Source: Eledone cirrhosa (lineage: Eukaryota). Taken from it: a stretch of 64,000 bases of DNA. The notes under the pieces are model-generated. The model ran no database searches, was not told where the DNA came from, and saw only the letters and a program-made list of their open reading frames with translations. Each line of letters opens with the position of its first letter. The stretch's first letter is position 1. Below, piece by piece: positions 7,255-63,380 of this stretch. The position numbers were made by a program, and so were the translations under genes. The DNA is taken from NCBI GenBank assembly GCA_964016885.1, contig OZ024746.1, positions 57,350,001-57,414,000 on the forward strand, given 5' to 3'.

Positions 7255-7745
7255 TTAGCAATGCATGTTTGTAGAAGCTTTTAAGTCTCTGTATTAAGAG
7301 GGCCGAATGATCTCGTGTTTACCCTTGTTGTAAAGTATTATTTGAATGGCGCGACTTACAGGGCACCTGTTTTACAATATCTCAACGGCTGAAGCTTCGC
7401 ATGGTTAATCTAATTGGAAATGCCAACCTTATATCAGAATAAGAAACAGAAATTAACACAGGGATACAAGATAGGTGGAAACAATGATAGTAACTGCCAT
7501 GCTTAAATCTTTGAGAAATTGTAAAAGGTGTTCACAATCTCATACCAATTATATTGTATTGCTACGCGGTACACCAATAAGACAGATTTATGACCATTCC
7601 TATCCTGAGCGTGGAGACCTAAATGTTAATAAACATATTGATTTAGAAACGCTAATATACATACACACACACACATATACACACACATACACACACATAT
7701 ATATATAGATGGACGTTGGACGTTAAACGAAGATGATGATGATGA

Positions 7746-7894
<149 letters not shown>

Positions 7895-8214
7895 TATATA
7901 AATATTTGCTCTACAGTTCTTATATATTTGATATATATTTATCCTTATCGAGCCCTCTTTGGATTTTAGTCTTCAAATTTATTATTATTACTATATATAT
8001 ATATATTTCGTTTCTGAATTTATTTAACAAGATTCTTTATGTGAAAACGTGTGTTGAAACCGATATTGTTATACTTGGGAGGGTCATGTTGCCAATAAGA
8101 AACACACGCAACAGTTGCTTCAGTTCAATTTATTATAATAAATTTATAAATTTAGGAATTTATAAATTTCCTGTTGGTTGGTTGGTTCCACAACCAGATG
8201 GTTGTTTATATATT

Positions 8215-8257
8215 GTAAAAGTTATTTCGTCACACATTATGTGACCTCTTCAGTGAA
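8215..8257 (-). ncRNA. Hammerhead ribozyme motif in PLE pseudo-LTR (degenerate copy)
   Basis: UUCA-CUGAAGA-gGUCACAuaaugUGUGAC-GAAA-uaac-UU-UUAC; stems I and III carry mismatches relative to the 11862 copy. Confidence 0.6.
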
Positions 8258-8382
8258 TGGGGATTATTTTCTTTGTTTTTTGTGCCTCTCCTTTGTTTTG
8301 TCCTACGCCATCTTGTTTTTGTTTGTATGTTGTGTGTTTAGTTTGCGGATGTGTTACATCCGGGTGTCTGTGTGTGTTTATA

Positions 8383-10800
8383 TTCGGGTTGCACATGCGG
8401 GACACGTTTCTCATCACCGGTACCAAATCCGCAGCCAGTATGTTGATTTTGTTATGGTCCGAAACAGCTGAGTTTCGGTAGATCAGATATTTGGAAGTCA
8501 TGGGTTTGGCATAATGGGAATGGAGGATTTGTTTTTTGTTATTAATGGTATCTAACCAGAGCTCGGTGTCTAGTACAGGTAATCGATGGTTGGGGTGTTT
8601 GCTTGGGTAGTCTATAGTAACTCTAATACTCTGGTGGATGGAGTTAGCTATTTGCTGGATGCTTTCCATTGTGTTTTTCTCTAATTCTTGACTGTTCTAT
8701 AGTGGAGGTGTGTTAACTACGATGTTTATATCATCAACGTAGCGGGAGTACATTATCAGGGTTAAGGGCTTTTCTAATTGTTCTTTAAGTTTAAGTTTAT
8801 GTCTACTGTCCCACCATACCATGAATAGGTTAGCTATGTCGCCTGCAATGCTAACACCAATGGCTGCTCCCTCCTCTTGGGCATATGTTTTTCCATTAAA
8901 GTTGAGCATATGTTCCTTAAGGGTTAATTTTATGCTGGCCCCCACCGCGTGTGCAATCATTTTCTTTAGTTCATCTTGGTTTTCGGTGGTCCGTATGTCT
9001 CTGGTCCACCCGTTCCATCTATCTGTGTGGGTTTTCTTGGCCATTGAAGTAATGGTAGGTGGTCTGACTCGTTCTGGTCTTGTAGGGCACAGGTTGCTAA
9101 GATCATATGTGACTAGATAATTATTACTATAGGTAAGTTTAAGTAGGAGTCCCAGCTCACTGGTATCAATCACACAGAATTCAACATTGCTCTCACTGAT
9201 CATTTCTACGCATTTCTCCACAACAAAATCCACGTCAATAGATGGATACAGAGACACAACATCAATACTACTTATTATGCAGTTTGTTAGGTCCATAGAT
9301 CGGTTACTCTCGCCGATTCTGCTGAGGAGGTCCTCCGTGCTGTCACATACATCTGGGGACATTTCAATGATGGGGCGTATGATCAGGGAGAGGAAGTAGG
9401 ACAGTCTGTAGTTACTAGCAATGTTAGTTCCACAGACTGGCCGTGTTGGTGGTCCTGTGACAGGGTCACTGCTGGTTTTATGGTCTTTTCGAAGCCCATA
9501 CAACGCTGGCACGTCATTGTTCCAGGCCTGCAAGTTGTTGGCAGTCCTTTTGTTGGGCTGCATTATATTTGTCCACATCATCATAAGGGCATTGAGGGCT
9601 TTTTCTCTATCCGCATGTACTTGTGGTGTTACTTCTCTTGTGTTATTGATGTGGGGTTGCATTGCCTGGATGTAGTTTGGCAGACTGTCAACCGACATTC
9701 TGCCAGATTTGTCTGTTGGAAAGCATGCTATCTCTCCATTACGCGTGCGCTGCATGAGCTTACGGAAGCCATTTGTAGATTTTCCTCCCAGTTGCTGGGC
9801 TCCATTCTATTATGTTTCTTGCTATACTGTTCTATAATATTTCTAAGATTAGATCTACATTTACTAAATTGTGCTTCTGTTTGTTCATCGATCTGCGATG
9901 GCAATTGCGTGCGTTTGTTAAAAGCTAAAGTCGTGGCGTGAACTCTTCGCAGGTCGAACGACTTATCGAAGGGATTATAACAAGTAGACTTCCAGGCTGC
10001 TGCTTTATGTGCACTAGTGCTATTGTTATTGTTAGTTGTGTTGTTTCTATTTCTATTTCCACCAACAGCCTCATGGTTGTTTCTATGTCTCTCATTATTA
10101 CTCCTTTCTCCTTCCTCTGGCTCATTGCTATTATCTACTCTAGTTTGTGTGTCTGTGTGATCGTCTTGGTTATTTTCTCTGTCCATAGTCTCTCTTCTCC
10201 TTTCAATCCTATTACCTTCCCTTATTTCTGTGCTACTGCCATTACCTGTTGTCTGTGTCTGTGTGTTTATTAAGATTGTGGTGGTGGTGAGAAGCATTGA
10301 ATGTGTGTGTCTTGTTGTTGTTGTTGTTGTGGTGGATGTGTCCTGTTGTTTATGTGTGTTGTTGTTGTTGTCTCCGTGTATGTTATTATTGCTGTGTGTG
10401 TTTTTATTGTTGTTTGTGTCTGCGTGTCTGTTGTTGTTGTTTCTGAGTATGTTATTAGTGTTGATGTGTGTGTTGTTGTTATTGTTGTTTGTGTATGTGT
10501 GTCTGTTGTTATTGGGATGTGTGTTGTATATGTGTGTGTGTACGTATGTTGTTACTTTTGTTTTTGTTTTTGTTTTTGTTTTTGAGGCTCCAACGTAATT
10601 TTGTCAATTATTTTCCTATTTCTGACAAGCATTTAATCATATTTGCCTTATTAAATGTGGCATACATAGGTGGCAGCTGTAATACAGATAATTCATCAGA
10701 GTCGACCGTAGTGTTGCCGTATATATTTGTGTTGTTGTTGTTGAATTCATCTGTTAATGAGATGTCGGCCATATTTATACCGTCAATTTTGTCGCGATAT
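8383..10800 (-). pseudogene. PLE reverse transcriptase, 5'-truncated, GIY-YIG deleted
   Basis: DELSVLQLPP..KLRW N-terminal motif; PTDKSG, LYGLRKDHK, RPV, SIDVVSLYPSI, GAAIGVSIAGDIANLFM, YSRYVDDI, LPVLDTELW, HYAKPM; TAA stop near 10610, frameshift near 9790, TAG stop at 8697. Confidence 0.93.
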
Positions 10801-11659
10801 CAGCTGTTTCGGATCATACCAAAATCGACATACTGATTGCGGATTTGGTACGGCTGAGGAGAAACGTTCCCGCATGTGCAACCCCGAAGAACTAGAGAAA
10901 CACATACAACACTTCATCCACCGTATGCAGTTCTCTGGTAACAATCAGAGAGATAAAATCAGAGTGTATAGAGGAGCCAGAATCAAATGGGAAAAAATGG
11001 TAAATAATGACATAAATGGGACCTGCCTCTTGTATAGGAGCAAATTTTGGAATGGAATAGAAATAACTAGGAATAACGCTAATAGAATAAACTCATGGTA
11101 TGATAGCAATAAATACCAGAGTGTAATGTTCATCAATACAACCCCAAGAGGTGAATTAGCTTACAAATTTAGAAGGGCCCTAGATAAACATAAACTCAAT
11201 ATTAAGAAAGTAGAAATACCAGGTACCTCCATAAAAACACTTATTAGCAAGACATACCCTTTTCAAAGACCTCCCTGTATAGATAAGGAAGGTATAATCT
11301 GTAAATTAAGTCCCCATATTAACTGTAAAACTAGAAATGTAGTATATAGCATAAGATGTACTGAAGGACAATGTAGAGATAAAAATATAGTTTACATATG
11401 TGAGACAGCTCGTAGTATAGGGGAACGGATAAATGAACACTGGCGAGACCTTCAAGATAGTAAAGAATCATCTGTACTCTACCAACATGCTAAAATAGGA
11501 CATAAGGTTAAATTAGAGAACATAGACATAAAAATAGAATCTTCACACAGAAAAGACGCAATGTTTAGACAAATCACAGAGGCAATAAATATAAATGAAT
11601 TACAACCAAAATTAAATAGAAAACATGAGTGGAACAGCAACATCACAACTTACAATTAA
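10800..11659 (+). CDS. PLE C-terminal fragment with GIY-YIG endonuclease (no RT); long open frame
   Basis: RMCNPEELEKHI..CKTRNVVYSIRC..YICETARSIGERINEH..RQITEAININELQPKLNRKHEW; homology to the left arm starts at about 10800. Confidence 0.88.
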
Positions 11660-11861
11660 GGACAAAATAAAAACACACACGCACATAGAACAAAGAACCA
11701 ACCAGTAACATGTAAATAAACAAATAAATAAACGAATATAAACACACACAGACACCCGGATGTAACACATGCGCAAACTAAGCACACAGCACACACACAC
11801 AAACAAGATGGCGTAGGACAGAACAAAGGAGAGGCACAAAAAACAAAGAAAATAACCCCCA

Positions 11862-11904
11862 GTCACTGAAGAGGTCACATAATGTGTGACGAAAGAACTT
11901 TGAC
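11862..11904 (+). ncRNA. Minimal type I hammerhead ribozyme motif in PLE pseudo-LTR
   Basis: GUCA-CUGAAGA-gGUCACAuaaugUGUGAC-GAAA-GAAC-UU-UGAC; 4-bp stem I, 6-bp stem II. Confidence 0.75.
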
Positions 11905-12216
11905 AATATATAAACAACCATCTGTTTGTGGAACCAACCAACCAACAGGAAATTTATAAATTCCTAAATTTATAAATTTATTATAATAAATTGAAGTGAA
12001 AGCAAAGGCTGCGTGTGTTTCTTATTGGCAACATGACCCTCCCAAAGTATAACAATATCGGTTTCAACACACGTTTTCACATAAAGAATCTTGTTAAACA
12101 AATTCAGAAACGAAATATATATATATATAGTAATAATAATAAATTTGAAGACTAAAATCCAAACAGGGCTCGATAAGGATAAATATATATCAAAAATATA
12201 AGAACCGTAGAGCAAA

Positions 12217-12269
<53 letters not shown>

Positions 12270-12273
<4 letters not shown>

Positions 12274-12466
12274 CGAAGGAAATGTGGTAAGGAACCAGGA
12301 GGACCATACCGCACCAAAGTACTCAATACTTGGGGTAGTAGAGTGGGTAATAGGAACCAGTAAGACCCCGAAGGCTGAGCTCAAGCTGTTTCGACGGCTA
12401 ATTCTGGTCCAGAATTAGCCGTCGAAACGGCTTGAGCTCAGCCTTCGGGGTCTTACTGGTTCCTAT
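12270..12466. mobile_element. Palindromic mini-element (fold-back pseudo-LTR) in (TA)n
   Basis: 58-bp inverted arms around ctgg-t-ccag plus about 80-nt tail; same family at 63145-63341 and 35265-35378. Confidence 0.85.
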
Positions 12467-12715
12467 CTATATATATATATCTTCATCATCATCTTCGTTT
12501 AACGTCCAACGTCCATCTATATATATATGAGTGTGTGTATGTGTGTGTATATGTGTGTGTGTATCTATGTATATTAGCGTTTCTAAATCTATATGTTTAT
12601 TAACATTAAGGTCTCCACGCTCAGGATAGGAATCGTCATATAACTGTCTTATTGGTGTACCGTGAAATCATTGGTGCGTGTGTTTCTTATTGGCAACATG
12701 ACCCTCCCAAAGTAT

Positions 12716-13109: not shown

Positions 13110-13154
13110 GAAAATAAAACAAAGAAGCCTTGAATACATCAAAAGTCTTTATTA

Positions 13155-13192
13155 GCCAACAATGTTTCGTCCTATTAAGGACTCATCAGGGC
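13155..13192 (-). ncRNA. Minimal type I hammerhead ribozyme followed by AATAAA (PLE 3' end)
   Basis: GCC-CUGAUGA-GUCCuuaauaGGAC-GAAA-CAUUG-UU-GGC, then uAAUAAA and (TA)n about 45 nt further. Confidence 0.85.
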
Positions 13193-14626
13193 AATCAAAA
13201 CCACAAGAAGTACTATCGGCCCACACAAGCCGAAAACTCCGAAGAATATGGAGTGTACATACACTAAAGTATTGTAAGATTATGGGTAACAATATATAAT
13301 AAAAATCACTAAGGAGGTGTATAACATTTTGAACTATATTACAAATATAGTCCAAAGCAAAAAAAAACCTAGAGCTAAACAAAGGTGGATATATAGAGCG
13401 GGAATTATATATAATACTATATAATATACAATAATATACTTGTAACAATATTAAAATTAAAATTAAAAATTAAAATTAAAAGGCACAATATACATATGTA
13501 TATATGTACGCATACGTACGCACATATACATATACATCAATACACATATCCATCATTAACAGCACAAATTAAACCTTATTAAGAGTTTAAATATAAATAA
13601 GCATAATAGGAATAAACATAATAATAATACTACGTATATCTAATATACATGAAGTAATGAAATGATTAAAAGTAACACATATAATATATAATAAACTATA
13701 TAATTATATAATATATAATATAACATAATAGATAAGCTCCCGTTAATTTACACAAACAATAAAGATGTCACAATAATACTATAATAATAATATAATAATA
13801 TATATAATATATAATGGCATGTAAGTTAACAAATCAATTCATATAGAGTTACAGAGTAGGTGAGAAAAAAATATAAATTGTACAATACCCAAAATTATGA
13901 TGGTACAAAAATATAAACATCTTACATGATATATAAAATTTAACATATCATAATGGTACATAAAATCAACGGTAAGTAATAAGGATCAATAGTACGATAA
14001 CAACTTCAATATAAAATAATGAACATAATATAATATATAATTACTTATAATTACAAGGTTTGTAAACAGACATATATGTGGATGAGTGAATAAGGGCCAG
14101 ACAGAAAATAGAATGCACAGTAGTATTAATAAATAAATAAAAAAATCAACCGGAAATTAATAAACAAAAACAAAAGTATTTACTTAGGTCTCACATGCAG
14201 TTAAGTAAAAACTTAGGAAACAACCCAGGTAAGTGACTCGAAAACCCTATTTGATAAATTAATATTGAAAATATTTAAAATACCTAATAAGGCAATACAT
14301 TATTAGTTATGGTTTAAGTAATCAAAATTCATAAACATTAATATTTCACTATAAATATATATATAAAAGAATGAAATATTCTACTATCATTTACATAACG
14401 ATATCTAAAAAACTGACTTAAGCAGAATTATGGTAGGCTAATAGGGACAGAAAAAAAGAAATGTATGTAGGATACAAAGGAGCATAAAATCATAATCAAT
14501 ATACTGTATTATATATATATTTTCATAATTCTTCGGCTCTGTTTAATTACATTGAGCTATACCTTTTACTGTCCTTTCTATAATACGTAGAGGGTGTTTA
14601 ACTCCAACACGCTCCACTATTTTAAT

Positions 14627-14662
<36 letters not shown>

Positions 14663-14664
<2 letters not shown>

Positions 14665-15041
14665 AGTAAGTATGTTTTGAAACAGTGAGAAGGTTTGAAA
14701 TTAGAAAATATATAGCTTTCACCGTATTTATGACTAAAGGAATTTTAGCCTAATAATGGGGTTTAGAACCCTCAGATAAATGGAAAAAAGATGTGTATTG
14801 ACGTACATGGGAGTCGAACCCACATCTTTGGTTATCGTGACCACTGTTCTACCATTGCACCAATACATGGGTGATGTGTTGGGTAATGGTAGCACATTGG
14901 TCGCGATAACCAATGATGTGGGTTCGACTCCCATGTACGTCAATACACATCTTTTTTCCATTTATCTGAGGGTTCTAAACCCCATTATTAGGCTAAAATT
15001 CCTTTAGTTAAAAATACGGTGAAAGCTATATATTTTCTAAT
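14663..15041. mobile_element. Fold-back element with two divergent tRNA-like units, in (TA)n
   Basis: About 14700-14869 is the reverse complement of 14873-15041; left arm has about 37-nt extra tail; diverged partial copy at 15058-15172. Confidence 0.85.
14873..14942 (+). ncRNA. tRNA-like cloverleaf (non-canonical anticodon loop) followed by T6
   Basis: Acceptor GAUGUGU/GUACGUC, D-arm with AAUGGUA loop, UUGGU/ACCAA arm with 7-nt loop CGCGAUA, T-arm GUGGG-UUCGACU-CCCAU; TTTTTT about 9 nt downstream; mirror copy at 14799-14869 (-). Confidence 0.7.
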
Positions 15042-15612
15042 ATATATATATATATATAGTAGTAATATTTTCGAATCAGCGAGCAAGTTTGAAATTATTA
15101 TAAATGTAAGTTATCGCCGTATTTTGACTGAAGAAATAAAAATAAATTATTTAGCCTGATAGTGGGGTCCATTTAAGGGTGAAAGCAGTTAAGTGTGAAA
15201 GATTCTTTGCTTAAACTTTAATCTGTTATTTATATATATGTATGCTCCTTGATATGGTAAAATAACTCTGATTGTTCATTTACCTTCTGTATTAAACACA
15301 GAACTGTCTCTTACCTAACTTACTTAGGTCCCTAAAATCACAGCGTGATTTGATATGTTATTTGCCTTTATATGGTTGTATTATCATCTCATCTAAACTC
15401 TTATATATATATAATTTGTCGGGAATGAAAAGATTTGTTTTCTATTCTCCCGCCACCACGTAAAATGTGTGAATCAGTGGCTAGTTGAGGGACAAATTTC
15501 TATCGGATTCCAGTTGCTAATCCCTTTACCGTGTCGGTTGTCACAAACAGTCATGACCGGTATGGGCTGGGGTTTGGATTCTGTCGATCGATTGGTTATT
15601 GATTAGGCGATA

Positions 15613-16579: not shown

Positions 16580-16728
16580 TATTATAGGCACCTGTTTTAC
16601 GTGTGTTTTATTGAAGCGAATAACTATGTGTATACTCTGAGAATGTACCTTACATTGCCCATTGATTATGGTTAGATACAACCGGTCCTGGCGTTGATAA
16701 ATATACTGGGTCCGTCAACTCCTTATTA

Positions 16729-16903
16729 TTGGCAGTATCGGTAGAGGGTCAGAGATCCTGCTTTCCAGCATAGTTACGTCCCTTTATGGTCTGAGTTCAA
16801 ATCCCGCCGAGGTTGACTTTGCCTTTCATCCTTACAGGGTCGATAAAATAAAGTACCAGTAATGCACTTGGGTAATTGCTGGCCTTGTGCCTAAAGTAGA
16901 AAC

Positions 16904-16908
<5 letters not shown>
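16729..16908 (+). mobile_element. tRNA-derived SINE (family A, Nin/Deu-like central domain tentative)
   Basis: tggcagtatcggtaga A-box, gagttcaaatcc B-box, gcctttcatccttacggggtcgataaaataaagtaccag core, ends agaaacaatt; about 18 copies in window. Confidence 0.9.
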
Positions 16909-16960
<52 letters not shown>

Positions 16961-24290: not shown

Positions 24291-24702
24291 ATATAAACTT
24301 TACCATCTAATATAAAGATCTGCGAACGCAGATTTAAACACATTAAAATATTGGTTTGATTGGTATTAGCGCGTTCGCATACGCTACGTGCTTACACCAG
24401 AAACATCTCTTTTTATGACGGACAAATTCCTTCCGGGATATATATGAAGTAAATGTACTAAGGCTGAATGTAAGTAGAAAATCAATTTTAGAAAGTACCT
24501 GAATGAACTATAAATACTAAACAACTTCATCATCACATACATATAACAAATATATCAAACGTATTTAGCAAAGGATTTTAGGTACATAAACTAAGCAACT
24601 TCTTAAAAGCAAAGTAGAGTGTCATGAAATTCTGATGTCTACAATGAGTTATGACAATCCACTGCGAAGTCACAGCCAATGTATCATGAATATATATATA
24701 TA

Positions 24703-24990
24703 TTAATATAGAAAAGCTTCTACAAGACTAGAACTGTTTCATTCGTGAGAAATCATCAGGAAGCTACTGATGATTTCTCACGAATGAAACAGTTCTAGTC
24801 CTGTAGAAGCTGTTCTATATTAAAACATTTATACTCTGCTATGTATTGAGTATCTTACTTTCTGTGGTGACCCCCGATTCAACCCGGAATATCAATCTTA
24901 GATTTTATCTAATGAAAACGTACTTAAACACCATTGTACCTTTGAAATATGTATAATAGAATATATATTTTGATTATGAGAATATTTTTC
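24703..24990. mobile_element. Fold-back pseudo-LTR unit with HHR cores on both strands
   Basis: About 57-bp inverted arms around 7-nt loop gaagcta; right arm continues as tail; related fragment at 19800-19853. Confidence 0.8.
24763..24799 (+). ncRNA. Minimal hammerhead motif
   Basis: GCUA-CUGAUGA-uUUCucacGAAu-GAAA-CAGU-UC-UAGU; stem III register ambiguous. Confidence 0.6.
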
Positions 24991-49170: not shown

Positions 49171-49266
49171 TTAAGCAAATATTCGCTGCTTTAACCCTTT
49201 TACGGGATCTTCTGAAGAGTTTCAAAAGATTCCGTAAAAGGGTGAAAGCAGCGATTTTTTGCTTAA
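49171..49266. repeat. Imperfect fold-back, about 41-bp arms
   Basis: ttaagcaaatattcgctgctttaacccttttacgggatctt / aagattccgtaaaagggtgaaagcagcgattttttgcttaa; related fragment at 15175-15230. Confidence 0.7.
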
Positions 49267-57668: not shown

Positions 57669-58002
57669 GAGTTACGGCCCTTGCCATTCTGATTCGAATC
57701 CCGCCGAGGTTAACTTTGCCTTTCATCCTTACGGGGTCGATAAAATAAAGTACCAGTAATGCACTTGTAATTGTTGGCCTTGTGCCAAAAAGTAGAAACA
57801 ATTATAAAAGAAAATCACACGTAATAATTGTTTCTACTTTAGGCACAAGGCCAGCAATTACCCAGTACATTACTGGTACTTTATTTTATCGACCCCGTAA
57901 GGATGAAAGGCAAAGTCAACCTCGGCGGGATTTGAACTCAGTTCGTAAAAGGACGTAACTATGCTGGAAAGCATGGCGTCCGACCCTCTACCGATACTGG
58001 CA
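57669..58002. mobile_element. Tail-to-tail pair of SINE family A copies
   Basis: 57669-57804 (+) and 57824-58002 (-), about 20-nt spacer. Confidence 0.9.
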
Positions 58003-62360: not shown

Positions 62361-62636
62361 AGTGGTGGAACACTGGAAGGTAATATCCGTAGTGGTAGAG
62401 CACTCAGTCCAAGAGACGAGTTAGTTAGAAGTGGTTACACAACAGTTAGTTCACCATACCGAGAACAATTGTTTCACCTTCGCGGATCTTCAGATCGGGA
62501 TGTGTATGGTTATAGGAACAGAAAGGACAACCAATGTTTTCCTTCCTGTTCCTATTACCCTACACATCCCGAGCTGAAGATCCGCGAAGGTGAAACAGTT
62601 GTTCTCGGTATGGTGAACTAACTGTTGTGTAACCAC

Positions 62637-62640
<4 letters not shown>
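62361..62640. mobile_element. Fold-back mini-PLE (3571 family) with two HHRs, no ORF
   Basis: HHR (-) 62459-62498 and (+) 62569-62608: CCGAG-CUGAAGA-uccgcgaaggu-GAAA-CAGUUG-UU-CUCGG; (TA)n flanks. Confidence 0.9.
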
Positions 62641-62682
<42 letters not shown>

Positions 62683-62689
<7 letters not shown>

Positions 62690-63103
62690 ATATTAACAAA
62701 TGGAAACTATATTTATAAAACCATATTTATTTCATTATACATATTTCAAGGGTCACCAAGTTAAACTATGGTGCGCTTTCATCAGATAAAATATAATGTA
62801 GGTTAGTTTTATAAATAAATATTGATATACCCTTAAAAAATGCAACCATTCTGGTTGGAATATCCAGGAGATTCCAACCTGAATGGTTCCATTTTTTAAG
62901 GGTATATCAATATTTATTTATAAAACTAACCTATATTATATTTTATCTGATGAAAGCGCACGATAGTTTACCTTGGTGGCCCTTGAAATATGTATAAATA
63001 AATAAAAATAGTTTCCATTTGTTAATATATTGTATATTTACAGGAATAGTTTGTTGAGTGCTTTATTTTGGTTGTTGTATCCCAACAAATTAAATATAAC
63101 CTC

Positions 63104-63106
<3 letters not shown>
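62683..63106. mobile_element. Fold-back mini-element with two HHRs, no ORF
   Basis: About 180-bp arms centred near 62865; HHR (-) 62731-62790 UUUAU-CUGAUGA-aagcgcacca..uggugacccuu-GAAA-UAUGUA-UA-AUGAA; HHR (+) 62942-63000. Confidence 0.88.
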
Positions 63107-63144
<38 letters not shown>

Positions 63145-63147
<3 letters not shown>

Positions 63148-63341
63148 ACGAAGGAAATGTGGTAAGGAACCAGGGGGACCATAACGCACCAAAGTACTCA
63201 ATACTTAGAGTAGTAGAGTGGGTAATAGGAACAAGTAGGACCCCGACGGCTGAGCTCAAGCCGTTTCGACGGCTAATTCCGGTCCAGAATTAGCCGTCGA
63301 AACGGCTTGAGCTCAGCCGTCGGGGTCCTAATCGTTCCTAT
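63145..63341. mobile_element. Palindromic mini-element, same family as 12270-12466
   Basis: Same tail, same apex, same end point; carries GAAA-CGGCU-ugagcuc-AGCCG-UC-GGGGUCC. Confidence 0.88.
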
Positions 63342-63344
63342 ATA

Positions 63345-63380
<36 letters not shown>

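Follow-up and report, generated by a model that had tools for sequence, protein, structure and literature searches.

The fold-back at positions 14663-15041 of the 64,000-nt stretch of Eledone cirrhosa DNA analysed here (the window) is genuine, has two tRNA-like arms and is one copy of a genome-wide family. We propose that this family is likely a non-coding element made of tandem units, with an intact tRNA-like head and ends of the Penelope-like (PLE) type, which would be mobilised in trans by a Penelope-like RT/GIY-YIG protein and whose RNA would be made by Pol III from the internal promoter of the tRNA part.

The two arms of the fold-back (14700-14856 and 14885-15041) are 157 nt long with 96% identity (93% over 343 nt if the centre is included), the left arm is 37 nt longer than the right one, and (TA)n adjoins the copy on either side (Table 1). 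The original prediction that the fold-back carries a complete tRNA-like cloverleaf is borne out, as both arms pass the cut-off of the Rfam tRNA model (RF00005, 29 bits) and ARAGORN agrees for the right arm with a tRNA call at 14872-14943. Within the right cloverleaf, we take positions ~14880-14889 (with a 1-nt deletion) to be the A box and 14921-14931 to be the B box, according to the general consensus of these boxes. The first 2 nt of the right-arm leader are common to the left arm and constitute a microhomology at the junction. Several details predicted from this copy hold for it but not for the family. This applies to the cloverleaf at the start of each arm (most arms of the family are cut inside the T-arm), the GUGC/GCAC D-stem (GUGU/GCAC in the family), the 5-bp anticodon stem (the fifth pair is a G-A mismatch in the family) and the T6 run, which is T5 in 42/45 units.

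Table 1. Features of the fold-back copy and its surroundings. Positions are those of the window; u numbers refer to the unit of subfamily A (cloverleaf u54-124, A58 = u109, T run u134-138).
Feature	Positions	Strand	Evidence
(TA)n target, left	14630..14662	.	sequence
37-nt tail of the long arm, u223-u259, between the two fixed 3' ends	14663..14699	-	
Left arm, trailer and 3' body (u125-u222)	14700..14798	-	
Left tRNA-like cloverleaf; A58 at 14814	14799..14869	-	RF00005 31.8 bits
6-nt leader of the right arm (u48-53), putative Pol III start	14867..14872	+	
Right tRNA-like cloverleaf; A58 at 14927	14873..14942	+	RF00005 31.2 bits
T run (six T in this copy, five in the family), which may be a leaky Pol III terminator	14952..14957	+	putative function
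Right arm, trailer and 3' body, to the proximal fixed end u222	14943..15041	+	
(TA)n target, right	15042..15059	.	sequence
Separate 5'-truncated copy of subfamily B (3' body and tail), same TA run	15058..15168	-	

In the 3.0-Gb genome, exact patterns for tRNA part, 3' body and leader matched 277, 679 and 379 times, with no match for the reversed patterns, and the tail pattern with up to two mismatches gave 7,283 matches (reversed control 0). The unit of subfamily A is non-coding and repeats head-to-tail with a period of 259 nt; that of subfamily B has ~270 nt, is 83% identical to A and has the same tRNA head. Copies differ from their subfamily consensus by 4-5%, and seamless multimers reach ~2.9 units. 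Presence of the cloverleaf in both subfamilies rules out that the tRNA part is a one-off insertion.

The ends of insertions were analysed at 74 sites (133 arms) behind the first 100 of the 679 3'-body matches, a set chosen only by a 3' 30-mer, located entirely on contig C1 and including two pairs of near-identical duplicates. The 3' ends of these arms were found at u259 for 35 arms, at u1-4 of the following unit for 23, at u222 for 31 and at u214 for 15. The main fixed ends u222 and u259 are 37 nt apart (u214 is minor), the same offset as in the copy in the window. For 109/133 arms, the 3' end continues into (TA)n. An inverted arrangement was present at 53/74 sites, head-to-head in 53/53, and the other 21 sites had one orientation only. 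Inverted sites combined a long with a short arm in 49 of the 53 cases and never two long or two short ones; at the remaining four, a tail-bearing arm was paired with another end. Furthermore, copies of the family have ragged 5' ends, occur as partial tandems and include inverted arms truncated at the 5' end; the (TA)n on either side of them would mask any target-site duplication. At diagnostic bases, both arms of a site match each other (43/43 sites at one, 37/41 at another), consistent with a single template per insertion, or with a snap-back copy.

The available part of Craig et al. 2021 (PMC8557442) describes as PLE features a tail of 30-40 bp, partial tandems and inverted copies truncated at the 5' end, and the tail and inversion pattern found here agrees with that description. 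The two fixed 3' ends likewise agree with two internal RT starts as reported by Frangieh et al. 2024, according to whom, in the part of that paper at hand, tail length equals the distance between the two internal start sites and RNA 3' of both sites is required (PMC11167929). An in-genome control was provided by a tRNA-free repeat, linked to a frame of 703 aa in which RT and GIY-YIG-type motifs are present; this repeat shows two fixed ends (21/72 and 24/72 arms) and the same kind of fold-backs. A Pfam search of this frame gave no match; we presume the control family to be Neptune-like from its motifs, along with the linker description in the accessible text of PMC8557442. Fixed 3' ends, (TA)n targets and the inversion pattern together support the predicted mobilisation by Penelope machinery.

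An ordinary LINE-dependent tRNA SINE, or a MITE or fold-back DNA transposon, would also account for some of these features, namely the tRNA-like head with A and B boxes and the inverted arms at 53/74 sites. However, the units are arranged head-to-tail with a leader upstream of the tRNA, there are two fixed 3' ends but no A-rich or repeat tail, and fold-back centres vary, arms are unequal and 21/74 sites have a single orientation. A terminal inverted repeat pattern as in MITEs did not appear in the other copies. Because of these end patterns both readings fail; they are largely refuted, and we consider them very improbable.

The tRNA-like head scores up to 42.4 bits with RF00005 in the family. 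Between the consensus sequences of A and B (29 and 18 units), the module of leader, cloverleaf and trailer has 4 substitutions in 107 positions compared to 24/148 outside the module (P=0.002), although this test involves two subfamily consensuses only and recombination between A and B could mimic selection. Changes within the cloverleaf concern loops only (two anticodon-loop bases and a D-loop indel). The predicted lack of U33 applies to the commonest anticodon loops and thereby to most units, but 5/54 units have the loop CTGGATA, in which U33 is present. As the anticodon loop differs between the subfamilies and mostly lacks U33, decoding is unlikely; a fixed anticodon loop with U33 matching an isotype, as in a functional tRNA gene, was not found. 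The nearest host tRNA is that for Gln (38-40/72 positions match) in a sample restricted to Gln, Thr and variants, in which most Gln genes had been fetched by a D-arm pattern derived from the element, which favours Gln. Relative to host tRNA-Gln, 8-9 of 21 stem pairs differ on both sides yet pair, and one is broken. Sampling covered Gln, Thr and variants alone, so such pairs do not prove covariation, nor does the match to Gln establish the source tRNA. Leader u36-53 is complementary to trailer u125-143 including the T run (e.g. L005:1448-1710), extending the acceptor stem by ~17 bp; when A is compared with B, three positions of the added stem are changed, one of which is a mismatch, and the stem may be an inversion scar.

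Other tRNA-related sequences were observed in the genome as well. A multi-kb dispersed repeat with internal inverted repeats, seen at ten loci on six contigs (L192, L194-L202), carries an intact tRNA-like gene (53-72 bits) at ~1501-1573 of each locus, with a variable anticodon (GGC, GAC, GTC, AGC or GGT); possibly, this is a DNA transposon with a captured tRNA. On contig C1 near 168.2 Mb, a tandem tRNA-Gln cluster (L171-L189) contains repeated copies in which the anticodon is CTA (amber) and the anticodon stem is altered. A very abundant tRNA-type SINE, mostly of full length, is present at window positions 16728-16911, in ~15 further copies and as a tail-to-tail pair at 57670-57960. This SINE served as control for the analysis of 5' ends at the T-loop.

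Most arms of the family stop within the tRNA-like head. Among those reaching u119, 68/104 end at u109-119, that is, at or just 3' of A58, while the bins before this stop hold 3/107 (u120-130) and 6/113 arms and the bin after it, covering the next 11 nt, 0/36. In subfamily B, 27/32 arms from the 29 best BLAST hits end at u109-121. The junctions lie on self-complementary 4-mers, or on AT/TA common to the target. A single truncated master starting at u114 was considered and rejected, as the junctions vary (CATG, GTAC, ACGT, TA) and the stop is seen in both A allele classes and in B. Templates that contain the leader behave differently: in a leader-selected set (83 sites behind the first 100 of the 379 leader matches), they lack the stop (2/32 on the second pass, 3/21 partner arms). 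The two template classes (42 versus 14) share none of the 74 sites (P=1e-6).

The furthest ends of stopped arms (u109-112) correspond to A58 or lie just 3' of it. It is documented that RT stops at m1A58 and that pre-tRNA receives this modification, as stated in the available parts of PMC8599865 and bioRxiv 2026.05.17.725798. The majority of stops, however, fall within the acceptor/T helix, 4-9 nt 3' of position 59, and an m1A stop would therefore have to be combined with trimming to microhomologies. The ordinary tRNA-SINE in the same loci lacks a stop of this kind, as 9/67 copies end near the T-loop and 37/67 are full length. The tRNA-free control PLE family has a 5' cluster too (43/72 arms within 30 nt, in part owing to alignment limits of related families), so that a stop hot spot can occur without a tRNA head and is no proof of m1A. 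From DNA alone, which does not separate modification, fold and T-loop cut, we regard an RT stop at m1A58 as a serious candidate, a stop at the folded acceptor/T helix as an almost equal one, and a T-loop cut as a doubtful source of the arm ends.

The 5' cluster of the control also bears on the question of whether the tRNA is just a passenger that was acquired a single time by a PLE-derived unit transcribed by read-through only, with plain secondary structure as the cause of the stop. Such a relic could still look intact in a family as young as this one (4-5% from the consensus). On the other hand, the tRNA module is ~4x more conserved than the rest when A and B are compared, leader-containing templates contain the same hairpin but show no stop, and there is a second 5' edge where a tRNA gene would start. 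A passenger tRNA is thus, in our opinion, quite unlikely.

This second edge is formed by the 8 arms, out of 31 reaching u61, that end at u47-61; of the 23 left, one ends at u32-46. It is best seen in a query-biased set of 364 distinct arms, in which 34 end at u48-61 versus 6 at u34-47. Of these 34 arms, 20 retain bases of the leader (u48-53), and no arm has its end exactly at u54. The edge at u48 contains AT, a possible microhomology. Judged from the sequence, a position ~6 nt before tRNA +1 appears to fit a Pol III start better than an RNase P/Z cut, and this lends support to the Pol III unit that was one of two predicted roles of the tRNA mimic. A T5 run after a tRNA normally terminates Pol III transcription, for which reason read-through has to be assumed in our proposal.

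The other predicted role, RNase P/Z processing, was not supported as the main one. According to this alternative, mobilisation would be of the PLE type as well, but the cloverleaf would be a processing or stability signal, with cleavage of multimeric Pol II transcripts by RNase P/Z (or a T-loop nuclease) into unit-length and possibly circular RNAs. It would be consistent with the lack of a hammerhead in the tRNA-headed family, with conservation of the whole cloverleaf and the ~17-bp leader-trailer stem beyond the needs of A and B boxes, and with the seamless multimers; circular templates have been proposed for PLEs and retrozymes (PMC7229834, PMC4209133, in the parts available). Nevertheless, the retained leader bases and the lack of ends exactly at u54 speak against cleavage at the tRNA 5' end. 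An RNase Z product would be expected to start at u125, close to which (u120-130) only the above-mentioned 3/107 arms end, and the main stop retains the 3' strand of the acceptor rather than starting after the discriminator. Moreover, the leader-trailer stem is not strictly kept, given its three A/B differences, one of which is a mismatch. We therefore consider the processing alternative unlikely and prefer transcription by Pol III from the tRNA-like head.

The predicted absence of a hammerhead was confirmed, with no core on the sense strand of the fold-back. Dimers of A and of B contain no CUGANGA on their sense strand, and an Rfam hammerhead search of four multimer loci gave no match at E<=0.5. 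A decayed hammerhead half in the 3' body, suggested by a GAAA motif in A only, has no support in B and is at most a lead. The hammerhead core pattern was present in 5/12 other fold-back regions of the window. PLE-type fold-backs with hammerhead core motifs are located at 24693-24833, 49171-49266, 62426-62641 and 62678-63040, and a type I hammerhead match of 29.1 bits, below the gathering score, was seen at 13151-13195 (-).

No ORF was attached to the element in any locus seen, contrary to the idea that it is the pseudo-LTR of an autonomous PLE linked to an RT/GIY-YIG frame. An autonomous RT/GIY-YIG partner sharing the 3' end was not found in ~0.83 Mb of loci, nor was a recurring sequence abutting the 5' ends of the element. 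The window and the loci examined contained no other homologues of the 3' half, and the 2-mismatch tail search gave only exact A/B-type strings among the first 100 matches listed. The Neptune-like family, as candidate partner, resembles the element weakly and without significance (nhmmer E 3-8). The resemblance concerns the hairpin and the flanks of the proximal end in A but not in B; for A, 0-4/500 shuffles score as high; among 1,500 random genomic windows, 31 score as high as A, in a pair picked post hoc, and 596 as high as B.

The Neptune-like family itself is abundant (at least 150 endonuclease copies), with examples at window positions 12272-12466 and 63104-63355 and at four loci (L045, L266, L316, L319). 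Its two fixed 3' ends have an offset of 78 nt, about twice the usual tail, and its 5' ends cluster in the hairpin region of the pseudo-LTR. The window further contains a broken PLE in inverted arrangement (7567-12662), with RT fragments at 8250-9806 (-), a GIY-YIG-type frame at 10745-11659 (+) and a hammerhead-like core at ~11866-11897.

According to our proposal, rare masters of at least ~1.2 units would be transcribed from ~6 nt before the cloverleaf, and their RNA would pass the T5 run and thus extend through the tail into the beginning of the next unit. In the leader-selected set, 11/161 arms qualify as masters (full unit plus start of the next). A PLE protein, as the presumed enzyme behind the observed ends, would nick (TA)n and prime cDNA synthesis internally, at two sites separated by 37 nt, so that one arm becomes long and the other short. 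Reverse transcription would usually halt in the T-arm, at or just 3' of A58, where arms are seen to end, and the ends would be joined at 2-4-nt microhomologies, leaving dead, promoterless fold-backs. A minority of arms, as in the 14663-15041 copy, extend to what would be the 5' end of the RNA. A second class of longer, leader-containing templates, produced by read-through or circular, may escape the stop and give rise to the tandems of 1-2.9 units that would renew the masters.

As to known systems, SINE2 elements resemble the family described here in that a body follows a tRNA-derived head containing A and B boxes. SINEs borrow the 3' end of a LINE and prime at the RNA 3' end, whereas the present family appears to be primed at two internal sites and its masters seem to require tandem units; the two internal fixed 3' ends and the tandem unit therefore place the family outside the SINE class. 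Sm-alpha and Sj-alpha of Schistosoma are of tRNA origin. These are the closest precedent, being short non-coding tandem units reported to be transcribed by Pol III, as we propose here, with the upstream unit transcribing the next one, but in their case a hammerhead cuts the multimer, while the tRNA-headed family has no hammerhead, a whole cloverleaf and PLE tail and inversion ends (PMC6765202, available part). The non-LTR retrozymes of animals, regarded as non-autonomous PLE derivatives, are likewise tandem and non-coding (~170-400-nt units); they are defined by a type I hammerhead per unit, and the tRNA-headed family, which has none, is for this reason not a retrozyme. No tRNA head is mentioned for retrozymes in the accessible portions of these sources (PMC7229834; bioRxiv 2026.07.22.740005).

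The hammerhead-less Naiad/Chlamys PLEs and non-autonomous Chlamys elements such as MRC1 share several features with our family, namely pseudo-LTRs, head-to-tail copies, inverted 5'-truncated arms, a tail of 30-40 bp, microsatellite targets and lack of a canonical hammerhead. However, the available text mentions no tRNA-derived part, and they have 3' ends in common with a known partner, whereas no partner was found for the tRNA-headed family (PMC8557442). Helenus TRIMs are non-autonomous as well and have a captured tRNA-derived Pol III promoter inside the terminal repeat, yet they belong to the LTR class, with PBS, PPT and 4-5-bp target-site duplications, and their conservation is reported around the A and B boxes rather than as a functional cloverleaf (PMC10886601, as far as its text was available). 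In the literature searched, which excluded subscription journals, Repbase and supplements, there was no tRNA-headed element mobilised by PLEs, and an octopus repeat annotation (PMC13282606) and PMC4209133 mention nothing alike in their accessible parts. The family is likely a variant of the non-autonomous PLE for which we found no prior description.

One might go further and view the family tentatively as a SINE-like class that is parasitic on Penelope elements instead of LINEs, in which the hammerhead has been replaced by a whole, Pol III-transcribed tRNA mimic methylated at A58 by the host, and whose thousands of genomic copies record how m1A stops a germline PLE RT. Parasites with a tRNA promoter have been described both for LINEs, as SINEs, and for LTR elements, as Helenus; the tRNA-headed family would add the third class of retroelements, without the hammerhead by which PLE-derived retrozymes are defined. 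Should m1A58 cause the stop, the ends of genomic insertions would map both an RNA modification and a transcription start. The element offers a natural template of ~350 nt for testing two-site cDNA start by PLEs, the origin of both arms from a single RNA and the need for a hammerhead.
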